A DNA stretch of 64,000 nt from Candidatus Campbellbacteria bacterium GW2011_OD1_34_28 (GTDB lineage Bacteria > Patescibacteriota > Minisyncoccia > Phycocordibacterales > UBA12079), in NCBI GenBank assembly GCA_001029775.1, contig CP011215.1, forward strand, positions 618,303 through 682,302. Direction: 5' to 3'. The translations under genes were made by a program, and so were the position numbers. How positions within the stretch are numbered: position 1 is the stretch's first letter; every line of letters starts with the position of its first letter. This document shows, piece by piece, positions 3,043-44,764 of this stretch. The notes under the pieces were generated by a model, which had not been told where the DNA came from, ran no database searches, and saw only the letters and a program-made list of their open reading frames with translations.

Positions 3043-3083
3043 ACCTATCCCAAAATTTTAACGACCGTTAAAATTTTAGGATA
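3043..3083. repeat. Palindromic repeat, family member 1: CCTATCCCAAAATTTTAACG-AC-CGTTAAAATTTTAGGATAG.
   Basis: Near-perfect 19-bp arms. Lies in the 5' region of leuS and 3' of the PaaX-like gene. Further copies at 3751, 27817, 28733, 31379 and 44725. Confidence 0.85.
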
Positions 3084-3166: not shown

Positions 3167-3727
3167 TCACTTCAAACCAAATACCTCTTTTAACCATTTT
3201 TCATTTTCAATTCGATTAACCTCCATATACAAAACATCGCTATCAATAAAAATTTTTGTCTTCAACAAAAAAATCAATTCTTCGCATTCATAAGGAAAAA
3301 CCCAAACGCTGTTCTGCAATTTAACAAAACCAAGTCTATTTAAATTGGATCTGAGCAAATCCCTAAGACCTCTCTTTTTTTCTTCAACATCAAAAATTAT
3401 CACCCTCCATTTTTTGTCCCATTTTTTTGGTTTTTCTATTTTTAAATCTCCCAATTCATATCTTCCAATCAATTCATCGCCTTTTTTGGTAAGTTTAATA
3501 AATTCAGAATCACCTTTTCTAACTTTTTCTAGCATACCCTTTCTCAACAAATTCTTGATTGACTCATTCATATTATATTTTTCCTTAACCCATCTTTTTT
3601 TATTTGGGGAAAATTGTTTAATGACTTGAAGAGCATTGGGAGCCACGATAGCAACACCAATTAATCCGGCTGTCGCTACGGTCGTTAAAATAATTTTTTG
3701 AATATTTATATTTTTTGAATCGTCCAT
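3167..3727 (-). CDS. PaaX-like transcriptional regulator: N-terminal TM helix, winged HTH (..LTKKGDELI..), and a WDKKW...FDV...LQNSVWVFPYEC core with the Cas2/VapD-type fold.
   Basis: Resembles E. coli PaaX (WDGKWLLLLSE...; yRLTekG wing). The core matches the Cas2 beta1-alpha1-beta2 signature (hhhFDV...R..L...G.rvQNSV[FW].c). The gene is flanked on both sides by 40-45 bp palindromes. Confidence 0.6.
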   Translation of the reverse strand: MDDSKNINIQKIILTTVATAGLIGVAIVAPNALQVIKQFSPNKKRWVKEKYNMNESIKNLLRKGMLEKVRKGDSEFIKLTKKGDELIGRYELGDLKIEKPKKWDKKWRVIIFDVEEKKRGLRDLLRSNLNRLGFVKLQNSVWVFPYECEELIFLLKTKIFIDSDVLYMEVNRIENEKWLKEVFGLK

Positions 3728-3750: not shown

Positions 3751-3795
3751 CACCTATCCCGAAATTTTAACGGTCGTTAAAATTTTGGGATAGGT
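3751..3795. repeat. Palindromic repeat, family member 2: CACCTATCCCGAAATTTTAACG-GT-CGTTAAAATTTTGGGATAGGTG.
   Basis: 22-bp arms with one mismatch. Lies immediately upstream of the PaaX-like gene start. Confidence 0.85.
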
Positions 3796-7946: not shown

Positions 7947-8058
7947 AATTTCTAGTTTATAGTTTTTAGTCCTTAGTTTTTAGAAACGAAGAAACAAACT
8001 ATTTTATTTAAATTAATTTAATAAGCTTCAACAATAATATCACAAGATGACAAAAATT

Positions 8059-8085
8059 AAAAAAGTCGCCGAAGCGACTTTTGTG
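8059..8085 (-). terminator. Terminator with a cUUCGg tetraloop on the minus strand. Nearly identical to the hairpin at 14307-14334.
   Basis: Minus strand reads GTCGC-TTCG-GCGAC followed by TTTTTT. It lies immediately 3' of ORF 8088-9254 and matches the 14307 copy at 23 of 24 positions. Confidence 0.75.
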
Positions 8086-8087
8086 CA

Positions 8088-10626: not shown

Positions 10627-11142
10627 TTATGTATTACTCTTTTTTGTTTTTTTTATCTCTTTCCATATTTTTTTGGATTCATCATAAACAATTATTACGC
10701 CTGGGATTATAATCAAAATTGCGAAACCAAAAGGTTTTCTTGCTTCTTGAACAACATAACCAGCATAAGGTAAACTAAACAAAACTTTTCCAATTACATC
10801 TTCTTTCGGGACATCTTTTGGGTCTTTGTCATCGTTGGCGTCTCCTTTTGTTATGTAATAATAATCCCCTTCTATCACTTTTATATCTACAATCCTGTGG
10901 GTGATAGGGGTCTCACTTTTATAAACATCACCAAAAGTTATAACATCACCTACCTGATAATCATCACTCGGTTTTATTACAGCTACACTTCCCGTCTTTA
11001 TTGCCGGCTCCATTGATCCAGACTGTACAACTCTTAATTCATAGTTACCTGTTATGGGGAAAATTGATGCAATCATGAGAACAGCCATTAAAAATATCGC
11101 GAAGACAACTATGTAATAAATGATTTTAATTAACTTATTCAT
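10627..11142 (-). CDS. sipW: Type I signal peptidase of the SipW/Sec11 (S26B) type (171 aa).
   Basis: N-terminal TM helix, the SGSMEP catalytic Ser motif, and ITHRIV (His). It sits directly downstream of two SipW-cognate-signal proteins. Confidence 0.8.
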   Translation of the reverse strand: MNKLIKIIYYIVVFAIFLMAVLMIASIFPITGNYELRVVQSGSMEPAIKTGSVAVIKPSDDYQVGDVITFGDVYKSETPITHRIVDIKVIEGDYYYITKGDANDDKDPKDVPKEDVIGKVLFSLPYAGYVVQEARKPFGFAILIIIPGVIIVYDESKKIWKEIKKTKKSNT

Positions 11143-12595: not shown

Positions 12596-13753
12596 TTACA
12601 GATCTGAATCTGTGTATGTTATGAGATTTAACTCAAACAAAGATTCTATTCCCACTGGCCATGTGGTTACGCTATTAGTTCCTGAGTTATATTCTGATGA
12701 TTTTATTACCCAGATTTTTGCACCTCCTGGATAATTAGCATCGGCTGAATCAGGAAGATTCATTCCCAAATTTACATCTCCTGAAACACTGGCATCACCA
12801 CTGCCGTCAGTTGTCAGTGTTCCGATTAATGCGCCTGGATTATTTCCTGGCCATCCATCAGCATAATAGATGATACTGTATTGAGTTGAAGCAACTAAAC
12901 CAGATACATCTAATGTGTAGTTAAATGTTGGGTGAGACGAAATGAAAGTTAATTCTCCTTCAACCCCATCATCTAGATAAGGATCCCATGTACCATCAAT
13001 ATCTTTGTTTTCTAATTTAAGAACAGTTCTCACTGGTTCTTGATTGTTTATACTTCCACAGACAAATTCATCATTGTTTCTTGCTTGTTCAACATAGAAA
13101 CTAATGTCACCTGTCATACTATCTGTTTGGATTTCGTTTCCAACTGATGCTGGAACACTCCATGAAACACCAATGTATGTAGTAGATGCTCCTGTCAATG
13201 GACCTGTTGCTGTTGTTGAGTCATAGATAGACAAAACACCATTGGCAGGATTACCTGATGTCAATGTTTGTTCACTTCCGTTTTGAATATTGTCGCCTGC
13301 AACCCCACCGCCTGCGCCATTATCTCTCCAGACGTTCCAAACCATAACACTTGATAGTTCACCATCGTTTACGCCAGTAGTTAAATCTACTGAAGCTTCT
13401 GGTTCTGTTTGACCGTTTTCAAGATCAGTCAAATTGGAAACTTCTGCACAAACCCAAGCGTCATTATTGATAACATGCAAACTGATGGTATTCTCTCCAG
13501 AATCCCCTGGTTTTATGTCATCAAAATTAAAGAACTTATCCGATGTTGGGATTAGATCTTTTTCTGCCCAAGTTGCGGCTTCAACATCCTCTCCATTATA
13601 GGTAGCAGTGCTATCTATTCTTAGATCGATTGCCCCAGCCGTAAAGGTGTTTCCTGTAGACGTTTCAGTGTCACTAAAGAAAGCGCCTGTAGCTCCAATA
13701 ATTATCGCTGCTGCTGCGACAATTGTCGAAGCACTAATGATTATTTTTTTCAT
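12596..13753 (-). CDS. TasA/camelysin-like secreted protein with a SipW-cognate class signal peptide, paralog 1 (385 aa).
   Basis: N-terminal ...GATGAFFSDTETSTGNTFTAGAIDL. Paralog of ORF 11267-12568. Confidence 0.75.
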   Translation of the reverse strand: MKKIIISASTIVAAAAIIIGATGAFFSDTETSTGNTFTAGAIDLRIDSTATYNGEDVEAATWAEKDLIPTSDKFFNFDDIKPGDSGENTISLHVINNDAWVCAEVSNLTDLENGQTEPEASVDLTTGVNDGELSSVMVWNVWRDNGAGGGVAGDNIQNGSEQTLTSGNPANGVLSIYDSTTATGPLTGASTTYIGVSWSVPASVGNEIQTDSMTGDISFYVEQARNNDEFVCGSINNQEPVRTVLKLENKDIDGTWDPYLDDGVEGELTFISSHPTFNYTLDVSGLVASTQYSIIYYADGWPGNNPGALIGTLTTDGSGDASVSGDVNLGMNLPDSADANYPGGAKIWVIKSSEYNSGTNSVTTWPVGIESLFELNLITYTDSDL

Positions 13754-13989
13754 AATTTTAATAAATTAAATTAGTTTATAAGTTTATATTTATTTGCCAT
13801 TTATATTAAATATAAAAAATGTCTTATTTTACTTTTTGTCTTTAGTTGTTTTTTATTTATTTTTTTATTTACATAGTTTTTTAAAAAAAATTAAGATTGA
13901 TAATTCTCGACCTTTCTTATTACAGACAATAAATATGTAAGTTTTTATTGAATGCAAAAAAGACTCTTTTAAAGAGCTTCTAGAATTAC

Positions 13990-14085
13990 TGAGGTAGATT
14001 GCCGAGGTAGAATTACCAAAAGCGTGCCAGCGTGGAATGAGGTAGAGAGTGAGAGGTAGAGTGCTTGAGGTAGAGTGACTGAGTA
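13990..14085. repeat. Five direct copies of GAGGTAGA (iteron-like) within about 90 bp.
   Basis: ctGAGGTAGAttgccGAGGTAGAatt...atGAGGTAGAgagtgaGAGGTAGAgtgcttGAGGTAGAgtgactGAGTAGAta. Confidence 0.8.
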
Positions 14086-14212
14086 GATATTTTTTTAATT
14101 AACCTAATATCAATTATATAGATATATACCTGTATATGTCAACTTTAAAAATGTATATTTTTTGTAATCAAAAAAACCTTATTTAAAAGCTTTTTTAGGC
14201 TTATACAAAAAG

Positions 14213-14524
14213 TTATCCACAGTTTTTAAACTTGAGTTATCCACAGTTTAAAAACTGTGGATAACTTAAAAAACGTCGTTGAATTTAAATTATTTTTAGA
14301 AAAATGAAAAAAGCCGCCGAAGCGACTTTTTTCAATGTAGATATTAATCCGAAAATTAATATCTACATTGTATCCACAGATCCGAAAATCTACGGATACA
14401 ATGTAGATATAAAACCGAAATTTTATATCTACAGCGTACTTACTAGTCCGAAGATTAGTAAGTACATTTCTATCTTAACCAATTGAGATAATTTGTCAAT
14501 ACTTTTTCGATTAACTGTGGATAA
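14213..14524. promoter_or_regulatory. Cluster of DnaA boxes (TTATCCACA). Perfect 9-mers at 14213-14221 (+), 14237-14245 (+), 14256-14264 (-) and 14516-14524 (-). One 8/9 box (gTATCCACA) at 14370-14378.
   Basis: Boxes 2 and 3 form a perfect palindrome AGTTATCCACAGTTTaaAAACTGTGGATAACT. Four perfect copies of a single 9-mer within 312 bp is far above chance in 64 kb. Confidence 0.7.
14307..14466. repeat. Array of five tandem hairpins with a conserved CCGAA(A/G) loop (UUCG-type loop on the minus strand) and variable stems.
   Basis: H0 GCCGC-cgaa-GCGAC; H1 ATGTAGATATTAAT-ccgaaa-ATTAATATCTACAT; H2 TATCCACAGAT-ccgaaa-ATCTACGGATA; H3 TGTAGATATAAAA-ccgaaa-TTTTATATCTACA; H4 TACTTACTAG-tccgaag-ATTAGTAAGTA. 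Confidence 0.8.
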
Positions 14525-14556
14525 CTTGGAAACAATTAATTTAAAAGGTTGGCTTA

Positions 14557-14910
14557 TTATTCTTCCTCTTTAAGTTTAGCTGCAGCTTCTGGCGTTGATA
14601 CCGTTTTACTGATCAGAAATAAACGGACAATTGCATAAGCGATTATCCAATACACCAGCATTGCCAAAAGAGTTGTCCACTCAAAGACGCTACCCTCTAG
14701 AGTTGTCTGTGGGAATACTGCAAGAAAAGGAGCAGTAAATGGCCGTGTAATACCGTAGATAAAACTTGTGAATCCAGCTACAGGATTTGCCCCCATAAAT
14801 TTGAGTGCAAAACGGAACGCAAGCAATATTTCAAGAAGAGAAAGAACATACCACACAATTTGTGTGCCTTTAAATAAAGGTTTCGTAGTGGGAGAATTAT
14901 ATGAGTCCAT
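14557..14910 (-). CDS. Small integral membrane protein, possibly YggT/Ycf19 family (117 aa).
   Basis: Three or four predicted TM segments. Weak similarity to YggT. Low confidence on family. Confidence 0.4.
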   Translation of the reverse strand: MDSYNSPTTKPLFKGTQIVWYVLSLLEILLAFRFALKFMGANPVAGFTSFIYGITRPFTAPFLAVFPQTTLEGSVFEWTTLLAMLVYWIIAYAIVRLFLISKTVSTPEAAAKLKEEE

Positions 14911-15194: not shown

Positions 15195-15610
15195 AGAGAG
15201 GAATCGGTCACGAGTCACTAAATATATTTAGTGCTCGCGATATTGTTCTGTGGATTATAAGAGAGGAATCGTCCCGCGGTTACTAAGTAAATTTTTCGCA
15301 AGCTCAAATTTACTAAGTACCGCTGGACGCGACTCAAAATTATGCTCCCAGCATAATTTTTCCGTCGTTCGATTCCTCTTTGGTCCTACAAAATCAAAAG
15401 CCCCGATGTTTTCACATCGGGACTTAAGATTTTGTGGAGAGGAATCGGCTCCCAGTTCTAAACAAAAATATGGACCAGAGAGGAATCGGTCACGAGTCAC
15501 TAAGTCTTTTGTTCATTCTTCGCTTCGCTACGAACTCCAAAAGCCTAAGTGCTCGCGACCCCGGCTCGTCTGTTTTGCTTCGCAAAACATGACTCCGCCT
15601 TTCGATTCCT
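15195..15610. repeat. Multiple partial copies of the tRNA-Ala 3' end (T-arm plus acceptor, core GAGAGGAATCG), in both orientations.
   Basis: Copies at about 15195, 15259, 15436 and 15471 share up to 19 nt with the tRNA 3' end. Inverted copies (TTCGATTCCTC) lie at about 15368 and 15597. Associated motifs GTCACGAGTCAC and TAGTGCTCGCGA each occur twice. Confidence 0.8.
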
Positions 15611-15654
15611 CACGAAAGCAAAGCAGTTTGCTTTCTTCTGGCACAGCAACACAA

Positions 15655-15688
15655 AATAAAACACCATCTAAAAAAGATGGTGTTTTAT
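15655..15688 (-). terminator. Terminator immediately 3' of tRNA-Ala.
   Basis: AAAACACCATC taaaaaa GATGGTGTTTT. Confidence 0.7.
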
Positions 15689-15698
15689 TTTGGTTGTG

Positions 15699-15772
15699 TG
15701 GACCAGAGAGGAATCGAACCCCCGGCCTCCTCAGTGCAAGTGAGGCGCTCTAGCCAACTGAGCTACTGGCCC
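15699..15772 (-). tRNA. tRNA-Ala (anticodon UGC), 74 nt, CCA not encoded.
   Basis: Cloverleaf deduced manually. Acceptor GGGCCAG/CUGGUCC with the G3:U70 Ala identity pair. D-arm GCTC-AGTTGGCTA-GAGC. Anticodon arm CCTCA-CTTGCAC-TGAGG. T-arm GGGGG-TTCGATT-CCTCT. Confidence 0.85.
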
Positions 15773-16963: not shown

Positions 16964-17076
16964 AATTATTTATAATATTAACATAAAGGGCTTTCTTTGA
17001 CACCGAGTTACAATATATGTATATTTACATCAGAATAATTCATCTAAAAAGAGCAATTCAACAGAGAGGATTACAA

Positions 17077-17664
17077 ATGGATAACGAAGAAAACACCTTA
17101 ACAACAAAAGTATTTATTTCCATCGGGACGATAATGGAAGAAACCAAAAAGGTTATTAAAGCAACAGAGAAAAAAGTTCTTGCAAAACAAAAAATAATAG
17201 AAAAAATCATCGCAGACTATAATAAAATTAGAATCGAAAAAATGGCTGAAATGTTGTCGAAAAGCATAGATGACAAATGCGACAAATGCGGACAAACTCT
17301 TGACCCCAATAAAATATTTCTCTTTCAATCCGGATATGACTATAACGAACACTCTTGGAGACCAACACAAATATTGAGGGTGTGTAGAGATTGTTCTATT
17401 TTTTTGGAAGCACGCAACGGGACATGGACCAAATGCGATTGCGGCCCGGAAGGGAGACAGACAATTTTTATTGCCAAATTAATAACCAGCACAGACCTTT
17501 TAAAAGAAGGTACCGTAAATGATCAAAGAGAGGAAATGGTCATGACATACCTTGCAGGAAAAAATATTCCCCCAGAATTTATTATAGAAAAAGAAAATGA
17601 ATATATTACCGGAATCTTTTTTGTAAGTCCCGATGGAAAAATTAACAAAATTGAAGCGCTCTAA
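17077..17664 (+). CDS. Hypothetical protein with zinc-ribbon-like CDKCGQ...CRDC...CDC motifs. The track ORF starts at 17017.
   Basis: Internal ATG at 17077 is preceded by AGAGAGG. Terminator at 17669-17716. Confidence 0.5.
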   Translation: MDNEENTLTTKVFISIGTIMEETKKVIKATEKKVLAKQKIIEKIIADYNKIRIEKMAEMLSKSIDDKCDKCGQTLDPNKIFLFQSGYDYNEHSWRPTQILRVCRDCSIFLEARNGTWTKCDCGPEGRQTIFIAKLITSTDLLKEGTVNDQREEMVMTYLAGKNIPPEFIIEKENEYITGIFFVSPDGKINKIEAL

Positions 17665-22486: not shown

Positions 22487-22518
22487 ACATAACAAATCTA
22501 AAGAATGAACCAGAAACA

Positions 22519-22560
22519 AAAATGCCGAAATTTATGCGACCGCATAAATTTCGGCATTTT
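22519..22560. terminator. Bidirectional terminator with a long hairpin.
   Basis: AAATGCCGAAATTTATGCG acc GCATAAATTTCGGCATTT, an 18-bp stem. Confidence 0.8.
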
Positions 22561-22601
22561 TGCTTACTTATTACTTTAATCTTGCTACTTAATGCTAGCA
22601 G

Positions 22602-31305: not shown

Positions 31306-31378
31306 AATGAAACAGTATAAAGTCTGGAAAGTCGAAAGTCCATAAAAATTGTTTACCAAAAAACTCACGAGGTCTGAA

Positions 31379-31416
31379 ATGTGCAAAGTTTTGACGACCG
31401 TCAAAACTTTGCACAT
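31379..31416. repeat. Palindrome, family member 5: ATGTGCAAAGTTTTGACG-AC-CGTCAAAACTTTGCACAT (perfect 18-bp arms), in the tgt/def divergent intergenic region.
   Basis: Perfect palindrome sharing the (G/A)ACGACCGT(C/T) centre with members 1-4. Confidence 0.85.
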
Positions 31417-31499
31417 TTTAAACACCTCTTAATACCTAGTGTATTCAAATATTAAATACCCGCTTGCACAGGCAAGCTTGCTACTTTATACTAAATTCA

Positions 31500-44724: not shown

Positions 44725-44764
44725 AATGTGTATAAAAAGAACGACCGTACTTTTTATACACATT
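44725..44764. terminator. Palindrome AATGTGTATAAAAAGAACG-AC-CGTACTTTTTATACACATT between convergent vanY-like and uvrC genes. Family member 6 by its ACGACCGT centre.
   Basis: 19-bp arms with one A.A mismatch. Contains the same AACGACCGT core as the palindrome family. Confidence 0.7.

Follow-up and report, generated by a model that had tools for sequence, protein, structure and literature searches.

An array of five abutting hairpins, found in a 64-kb window of the groundwater Parcubacteria genome Candidatus Campbellbacteria bacterium GW2011_OD1_34_28 (contig CP011215.1, positions 618,303–682,302; 33% GC), is a real, non-random structure that is retained as a block across different gene contexts, evolves slowly, and accumulates substitutions fitting base pairing in its minus strand. 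The window is the whole stretch of DNA analyzed, and all positions given below refer to it. The hairpins span 14305–14466, inside an 800-bp intergenic region between a YGGT-family gene (yggT, 14557–14910) and a gene coding for a camelysin/TasA-like protein (12596–13753), both on the minus strand. We lean towards a small RNA gene standing on its own on the minus strand, with the array as its body and a putative transcript of ~170 nt. In kind, it is best described as a bacterial multi-hairpin small RNA, i.e., an unannotated structured RNA-like element without Rfam family.

The five hairpins, H0 to H4 by increasing position, lie where the initial annotation had placed them, and the loop that it had described as common to all of them is indeed found in each. 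The motif CCGAAR occurs at 14317, 14349, 14382, 14415, and 14448, with spacings of 32, 33, 33, and 33 nt, and its minus-strand reading gives UUCG tetraloops of the form C(UUCG)G or U(UUCG)G. Over the whole window the motif is not enriched (56 occurrences for 52 expected). For a 186-nt stretch containing the array, the predicted folding energies are −80.1 kcal/mol (minus strand, z = −13.6) and −70.7 kcal/mol (plus strand, z = −14.3), and none of 200 shuffled sequences folds as well in either case. H1 to H4 are 32-nt units (14336–14367, 14369–14400, 14402–14433, and 14435–14466) joined by 1-nt linkers. Each of them starts with TGTA and finishes with TACA, according to the formula TGTA + 9 + TTTCGG + 9 + TACA, which together with the linker accounts for the 33-nt period. 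The initial annotation regarded the stems as unrelated, and this does not hold: in addition to the TGTA...TACA frame common to H1–H4, array units are 63%–77% alike, and H1 and H3, which have CAATGTAGATAT in common and are 77% identical over a 57-nt register, are paralogues as judged from their sequences. In the predicted RNA the longest unpaired stretch is ~2 nt and the linkers are 0–2 nt long. Chains of at least three adjacent hairpins with at least ten pairs each are absent outside the array family in ~700 kb of Patescibacteria DNA. The 3′ arm of H1, H2, and the 5′ arm of H3 can also form one long hairpin (26 nt, 88% complementary), which was rejected as a functional fold, as it is not kept in the relative L079 (see following).

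The array is carried only by very close relatives, namely L212, L086, L079, L080, and L082, and the comparisons given here rest on four sequence variants: those of the window, L212, L086, and L079. In a survey of yggT with one genome per species, none of 77 loci of other species (YggT 44%–82% identical) has an array or a DnaA-box cluster. The three next-closest relatives, with YggT 84%–86% identical, have no array at yggT, and there is none nearby in relatives with DUF2914 proteins 64%–66% identical. Among viral sequences, a scan for four TTCGG at 33-nt spacing returned more than 120 matches and no hairpin array, the smallest stem in each having 0–4 pairs, and the frame TTTCGG-N9-TACANTGTA-N9-TTTCGG gave no match. 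BLAST searches against phages and plasmids gave trivial short matches or none. The array family is confined to one narrow lineage. Within this lineage, L212 is a near-identical variant and the sole locus recovered by a metagenome scan for the pattern of DnaA box and promoter. L079, L080, and L082 (YggT 95% identical) have a modified version. In L079, one 33-nt hairpin of the size of H2 is missing, the ortholog of H3 has its stem top and loop replaced (with a UUUA loop), and between the last hairpin and H1 there are 13 differences in 34 positions, the former still forming 13 pairs. The number of middle hairpins varies between relatives, being three or four. In both L079 and L212, yggT is directly upstream of the array. 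L086 (DUF2914 94% identical) has the DnaA box, the promoter, H4-H3-H2-H1, and H0, all intact, in a different context. It lacks yggT, the 6-kb island that lies downstream of the array in the window, and a palindrome with three DnaA boxes, and its downstream genes are different. The neighboring tRNA-Ala of L086 is on the opposite strand and points away from the array, so that nothing co-oriented lies directly upstream of it. Hence, the conserved unit runs from the DnaA box to just past H0, independently of yggT. Degenerate inverted copies follow H0 in L079 and L086.

The initial annotation had overlooked the DnaA boxes and the promoter-like site that flank the hairpins. Read along the minus strand, the unit starts with the DnaA box TTATCCACA (14516–14524), an exact match to the consensus, within a conserved 15-mer, AAGTTATCCACAGTT (14513–14527). 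This 15-mer is kept in all four variants, and the homology between the window and L086 begins exactly there. About 16 nt further on is the −35 hexamer of a sigma-70-like promoter (14472–14499, minus strand), composed of TTGACA, a 16-nt spacer, and TAAGAT, with 10 of 12 hexamer positions matching. A site of this type is present in all variants, with TTGACA (TTTACA only in L079) and TAAGAT or TAACAT. The first hairpin of the predicted RNA is H4, UGUACUUACUAAUC-UUCG-GACUAGUAAGUACG, whose tetraloop is C(UUCG)G. All four variants keep it, with 2–3 changes per 30 nt, and those of L086 and L212 create U.G pairs or repair an A.C mismatch. H3, UGUAGAUAUAAAA-UUUCGG-UUUUAUAUCUACA, the paralogue of H1, is followed by H2, UGUAUCCGUAGAU-UUUCGG-AUCUGUGGAUACA, in which two of the minus-strand pairs are G.U and whose plus-strand arm, TGTATCCACAGAT, resembles a DnaA box (near-box GTATCCACA at 14370–14378). 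H1, CAAUGUAGAUAUUAAU-UUUCGG-AUUAAUAUCUACAUUG, has 16 perfect pairs and extends over 14333–14370, its 32-nt unit being the core. The unit closes with H0 and its U-tract (14294–14334), GAAAAAAGUCGC-UUCG-GCGGCUUUUUUC followed by AUUUUU, an intrinsic terminator of the bidirectional type. The hairpin proper of H0 (14305–14334) has the stem AAAAAAGCCGC/GCGACTTTTTT and the plus-strand loop CGAA. Only H0 has the features of an intrinsic terminator (13 pairs, UUCG loop, and the tail UUUUUUCAUUUUU), and H1–H4 have no U-tract on the minus strand. This U-tract terminator at the end of the array is conserved among the variants, and H0 shows one compensatory change, from G-C to A-U, in L086 and L079. Beyond H0, at 14210–14267, is the palindrome, three perfect DnaA boxes (14213, 14237, and 14256 on the minus strand) arranged as a perfect inverted repeat of 23 nt. 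The window, L212, and L079 have it, L086 does not, and it travels with the island of 8.1–14.3 kb. Lying downstream of the terminator, the three boxes are probably outside the RNA unit. The inner part of the palindrome (14235–14266) is itself a hairpin with 14 pairs and a 4-nt loop, matching the array units in size.

Between the window and L086, promoter and array differ at 11 of 221 positions (5%), against 20%–25% of the third codon positions (91/365 in DUF2914, 72/365 in YchF, and 58/238 in RluA) and 26%–38%, with indels, of the other intergenic regions. Relative to the third positions of DUF2914, the contrast has a Fisher p of 5e-11. Hairpin by hairpin, there are 0 differences in 32 positions in H3, 1 in 32 in H2, and 1 in 34 in H1. 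The unit evolves about five times slower than silent sites and is under purifying selection. L079 is at a similar silent-site distance (25 of 118 third positions of yggT), and its promoter block, H4, and H0 are conserved (14/125 positions differ, p = 0.04).

The initial annotation had proposed examining homologous regions of relatives for covariation and had taken the pattern of loops and stems to suggest recognition at the level of RNA, and the comparison of the variants agrees with it in that the feature is one of RNA. In the alignment of the variants, 97.6% of the cells are paired, versus 36%–47% when the 3′ partners are slid by one to three columns. Seven pairs have changed on both sides and are still paired, one in H0 and six in H1, the latter being seen in the L079 hairpin at the position of H1. 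Wherever only one side of a pair was counted as changed, the result is G.U on the minus strand. The window and L086 are separated by seven hairpin substitutions; with six of these, pairing is kept or restored in a minus-strand RNA, and four of them would turn into A.C mismatches if the plus strand or a DNA cruciform were the pairing form. For each of the four variants, the fold of the minus strand is also the more stable one, by 7–23 kcal/mol (minus versus plus strand: −75.8 versus −66.4, −79.1 versus −62.1, −76.3 versus −52.9, and −57.5 versus −50.6 kcal/mol). Counting independent non-Watson-Crick events in the stems, there are seven G.U for three A.C on the minus strand. The better fold, the substitutions of L086, the G.U bias, and the conserved U-tract terminator with its compensatory change all point to an RNA-level feature of the minus strand.

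If the array is a small RNA gene, transcription would start near 14466 from the promoter at 14499–14472, just downstream of the conserved DnaA box, run through three or four UUCG-capped hairpins of 13–16 pairs with linkers of 0–2 nt, and stop at the U-tract terminator of H0, near 14298. As such an RNA has no single-stranded stretch, an antisense action by seed pairing is unlikely. One candidate antisense target was considered and rejected: an exact 13-nt copy of an arm of H3 (TTTTATATCTACA) is found at 10879–10891, in the gene of a SipW-like peptidase, which is compatible with chance (rough estimate ~0.08), and H3 is unchanged in L086 though the SipW-like gene is absent there. The RNA would more likely offer a protein that binds RNA, e.g., of the RNase III type or another hairpin-binding one, a scaffold or decoy that is double-stranded, stable, and multivalent. 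The UUCG loops would then be folding caps that make each stem fold locally, rather than recognition motifs, and the DnaA box might tie expression to the status of replication. We infer that the promoter is probably used and that DnaA may act through the box at 14513–14527.

Several points weigh against a small RNA gene. It is deduced from sequence and predicted folding. In this AT-rich region, such a promoter match does not exceed chance (8 promoter-like sites found for 7.9 expected), so that the match alone is not significant and it is conservation that distinguishes this site. The 7:3 excess of G.U is suggestive, but not significant by itself. The covariation comes mainly from one divergent lineage, L079, among four variants only. 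The low divergence from L086 could result from a recent recombinational transfer in a rearrangement hotspot and not from selection, and DNA-level correction of quasi-palindromes could mimic compensatory changes. As for the action through a protein, which the predicted fold suggests, no partner protein was found.

Alternatively, the array could be a passive cluster of DNA palindromes, arisen by local duplication of a terminator hairpin followed by template-switch (quasi-palindrome) correction at a recombination hotspot, and serving only to terminate or insulate transcription or to protect an upstream 3′ end. H0 does have a near copy at 8055–8086 (~33 of 37 positions), as the initial annotation had recognized, and the two flank a 6.2-kb island. 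H1 and H3 being paralogous, the variable number of middle units, the degenerate inverted copies after H0 in two relatives, and the restriction of the family to one narrow lineage fit the same history, and so does a neighborhood rich in remnants resembling tRNA 3′ ends, with a tRNA segment inverted in L086. Yet, such a cluster would not explain why promoter and array diverge five times less than silent sites and the remaining intergenic DNA do. Imperfect palindromes persist in the array, such as the two adjacent mismatches of H2 in three variants, and the new changes are mostly one-strand G.U, which homogenization at the DNA level would erase. Moreover, H1–H4 lack a U-tract and are hence not terminators themselves, and L086 has no co-oriented upstream gene to terminate or protect. 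We consider a passive origin unlikely, though it deserves more weight than the explanations that follow. The array shares with the repetitive extragenic palindromes (REPs) and bacterial interspersed mosaic elements, and with tandem terminator hairpins, the clustering of intergenic palindromes of ~32–38 nt near gene 3′ ends; these can stabilize upstream transcripts and change in copy number by local duplication. However, REPs have many dispersed copies, conserved stems, and a REP-associated tyrosine transposase, whereas the array is single-copy in the window and has differing stems, conserved loops, its own promoter-like site, and a one-strand G.U bias. No further copies of the arms beyond chance expectation were found in the window, nor any Y1 transposase among the scanned open reading frames. 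The initial annotation had proposed as well a multi-hairpin 3′ untranslated region of yggT. Such a region would shield this mRNA from 3′ exonucleases and end at H0. There is no terminator between the stop codon of yggT (14557) and the array, so that read-through is expected, and yggT is also directly upstream of the array in L079 and L212. Nevertheless, the array is missing behind yggT in the 77 species surveyed and in the relatives with YggT 84%–86% identical, i.e., at 80 other yggT loci in all, it is present in L086 without yggT, and the conserved stretch shared by the genomes starts with the DnaA box and promoter rather than with yggT. This proposal therefore finds little support and is improbable. 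As yggT has no terminator of its own in the window genome, its transcripts probably read through into the array and have their 3′ end there as well, a secondary consequence of the position of yggT.

A DNA element bound by DnaA would give a role to the boxes, be it oriC, a plasmid-like oriV, or a titration locus of the datA/DARS type, with palindromes that extrude as cruciforms or aid unwinding. All four perfect TTATCCACA boxes of the 64-kb window are within 14213–14524, 312 bp that also include the near-box of H2. They adjoin a 120-bp tract of 17% GC (14090–14210), so that the DnaA-box cluster and the adjacent AT-rich region typical of oriC are both present, as well as six GAGGTAGA repeats, and parB is 4 kb away. 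On the other hand, the GC skew of minus-strand genes does not switch (−0.220 on the left, −0.218 on the right), genes on both sides have one orientation (minus strand), and neither dnaA nor dnaN nor a rep gene turned up in the window. L086 keeps the array with only one exact box, having lost the AT-rich tract and the repeats of the island, and the substitutions favor pairing in one RNA strand. We thus rejected oriC, on the basis of skew, gene orientation, and the loss of three boxes in L086, and hold any DnaA-bound DNA element to be improbable, slightly less likely than a yggT trailer. DnaA-box clusters are known outside oriC, such as the DnaA-box clusters of B. subtilis and datA/DARS of E. 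coli, and there are also DnaA-regulated promoters. The array locus resembles these in having perfect boxes away from any skew switch, one of them just upstream of a promoter-like site, but only this one box is conserved together with the array. We know of no DnaA-box cluster associated with an array of UUCG hairpins. At the protein level, the plus-strand open reading frame at 14304–14486 would code for a 60-amino-acid (aa) protein with an 11-residue repeat, xxDxxPKIxxY. It is called as a gene in the deposited genome (GCA_000990865.1, contig LBQN01000002.1) and is intact in L086, but it stays open because the 33-nt period is a multiple of three, and the 11-residue periodicity follows directly from the palindromes. 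In L079 it meets a stop after 12 codons, its only match among 5.8 billion proteins is to itself, it has no Pfam match, and no ribosome-binding site or promoter is evident upstream, all of which makes a genuine protein hardly credible.

The initial annotation judged that the array is not CRISPR-like, correctly so. A resemblance exists to arrays of tandem interspaced guide RNAs (TIGR), of which the array might be an orphan or degenerate relative, with units composed of edge, 9-nt spacer, loop, and 9-nt spacer giving ~33-nt guides for a Tas-type protein. TIGR arrays have alternating repeats of 8–12 nt and 9-nt spacers in 36-nt units, typically 5–15 of them, with a rho-independent terminator at the end, and they are frequent in candidate phyla radiation (CPR) bacteria (PMC12045711). 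Host and layout are similar here: tandem units of ~33–36 nt, in which short conserved segments alternate with two 9-nt variable ones, are followed by a rho-independent terminator, each unit can be parsed as TACAnTGTA (9) + 9 + TTTCGG (6) + 9 = 33 nt, and the middle units vary like cassettes between close relatives. However, the spacers of TIGR arrays are unpaired and target opposite DNA strands, and edge and loop are required to have box D/box C motifs in common, UG...CCA or covarying equivalents (PMC12045711; bioRxiv 10.64898/2026.09.09.750476). In the array, the two 9-nt segments of a unit pair together, save G.U pairs and one A.C mismatch in H4, and are thus locked in a closed self-complementary stem, whereas the edge TACAnTGTA and the loop TTTCGG share no start or end motif of this kind. 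In the stem-loop type of TIGR both spacers are inside the loop (PMC12045711; bioRxiv 10.64898/2026.09.09.750476), for which the present loops are too small. The array also has only three or four units, and no protein with a Nop domain was found within 5 kb or in the window (Pfam, NCBIfam, and PADLOC). Motifs, spacer pairing, and the absence of a Tas gene led us to discard TIGR-Tas proper, and an orphan or degenerate array of this type is very improbable. A very divergent Tas might conceivably be encoded by the gene of a 215-aa protein at 17017–17664, whose single-sequence structure prediction is of low confidence (pLDDT 47).

A more novel reading would be a new kind of modular RNA, in which a frame TGTA...UUUCGG...TACA with a 33-nt period holds swappable self-complementary 9-nt cassettes read by a protein. 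Such an RNA might have a distant kinship with TIGR-type arrays or be their precursor, in either case without Tas, or it might be a double-stranded RNA regulator of CPR bacteria, controlled by DnaA and linked to replication. The middle hairpins are near-identical in two lineages that are 25% diverged at third positions and are swapped wholesale in a third lineage at a similar distance, which fits this idea, although we regard it as a long shot.

Among known RNAs, a scan of 4227 Rfam families at gathering thresholds finds only three tRNAs in the whole window, and the array matches none. Within 13700–14700, the best hits are to hairpin models of the miRNA type and to rsmX, at 28.6 bits versus a gathering score of 56. 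As with RsmX and with CsrB and RsmZ, the two to which the initial annotation had compared it, the array would be a stand-alone small RNA made of a series of hairpins with an intrinsic terminator, relatives differ in how many hairpins they have, and the presumed action is multivalent protein binding and not antisense. However, the Csr/Rsm RNAs expose GGA in loops and linkers and need CsrA/RsmA, whereas the array has closed UUCG tetraloops, long and perfect stems (13–16 pairs), and no single-stranded linkers. The GGA of UUCGGA is not exposed, as it spans the closing pair and the stem, and no match to CsrA/RsmA was found among the scanned open reading frames of the window. Type III toxin-antitoxin systems have near-identical direct repeats (ToxI) followed by the gene of a ToxN-type endoribonuclease. 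This is not what is found here, where the units are only 63%–77% alike and what follows downstream is genes of secreted camelysin-like proteins (window) or the gene of a 75-aa protein (L086).

CPR bacteria cannot be cultured by themselves, and their genomes are tiny and leave little DNA to spare; to our knowledge, almost nothing is known of their regulatory RNAs. In this setting, an 800-bp intergenic region carries a non-coding unit under clear purifying selection, with an unusual architecture: fully double-stranded, capped by UUCG, spaced by exactly 33 nt, and with a DnaA box at its promoter. If transcribed, it would be among the first candidate trans-acting small RNAs of CPR bacteria and a possible link of DnaA to regulation at the RNA level. 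Its value is limited by the few and very close relatives that carry the array.

The surroundings of the array show many signs of rearrangement. The 6.2-kb island is flanked by direct repeats of ~37 nt (8050–8086 and 14299–14336), which are the terminator H0 and its near copy. Its genes, all on the minus strand, code for two camelysin/TasA-like proteins, a SipW-like signal peptidase, a lamin-tail-domain protein, and a purple-acid-phosphatase-N protein. In L086 the island is absent, and a single H0 is followed by the same 75-aa gene; recombination at the terminator hairpin has thus probably brought in or removed the island. The three boxes at 14210–14267 are upstream of the promoter of the island, a perfect TTGACA-18-TATAAT on the minus strand (14142–14113). 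Downstream of it, the ~350-nt leader of the camelysin-like operon contains the six GAGGTAGA repeats (13991–14088), the last four with a 14-nt period, which read CUCUACCUC on the mRNA strand. On the other side of the array, a tRNA-Ala (15698–15772) has at least four direct and two inverted copies of its 3′ end (CGATTCCTCTCTGGTCCA-like) within 500 nt, at 15195–15611. These look like residual attachment sites of integrating elements, and the open reading frames of this stretch, e.g., 15250–15753, are probably spurious. The tRNA-Ala of L086 is inverted relative to DUF2914.

Other elements of the window can be noted. Long intergenic hairpins with GACC/GGTC loops are found at 3052–3077, 3762–3785, 22517–22562, 31377–31418, and 44725–44764. 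Two of them have nearly identical stems (AAAATTTTAAC), and the group might constitute a terminator or repeat family of its own. The 215-aa protein at 17017–17664 is rich in cysteine and zinc-ribbon-like, with no family match. It is present in the array-bearing window and L086 and not at that position in L088 and L091, which lack the array. A 186-aa protein (3167–3727) has a PaaX central Cas2-like domain (Pfam, E = 2e-20) and weak matches to Cas2 in NCBIfam and PADLOC, with no CRISPR array noticed in the 64 kb around it.

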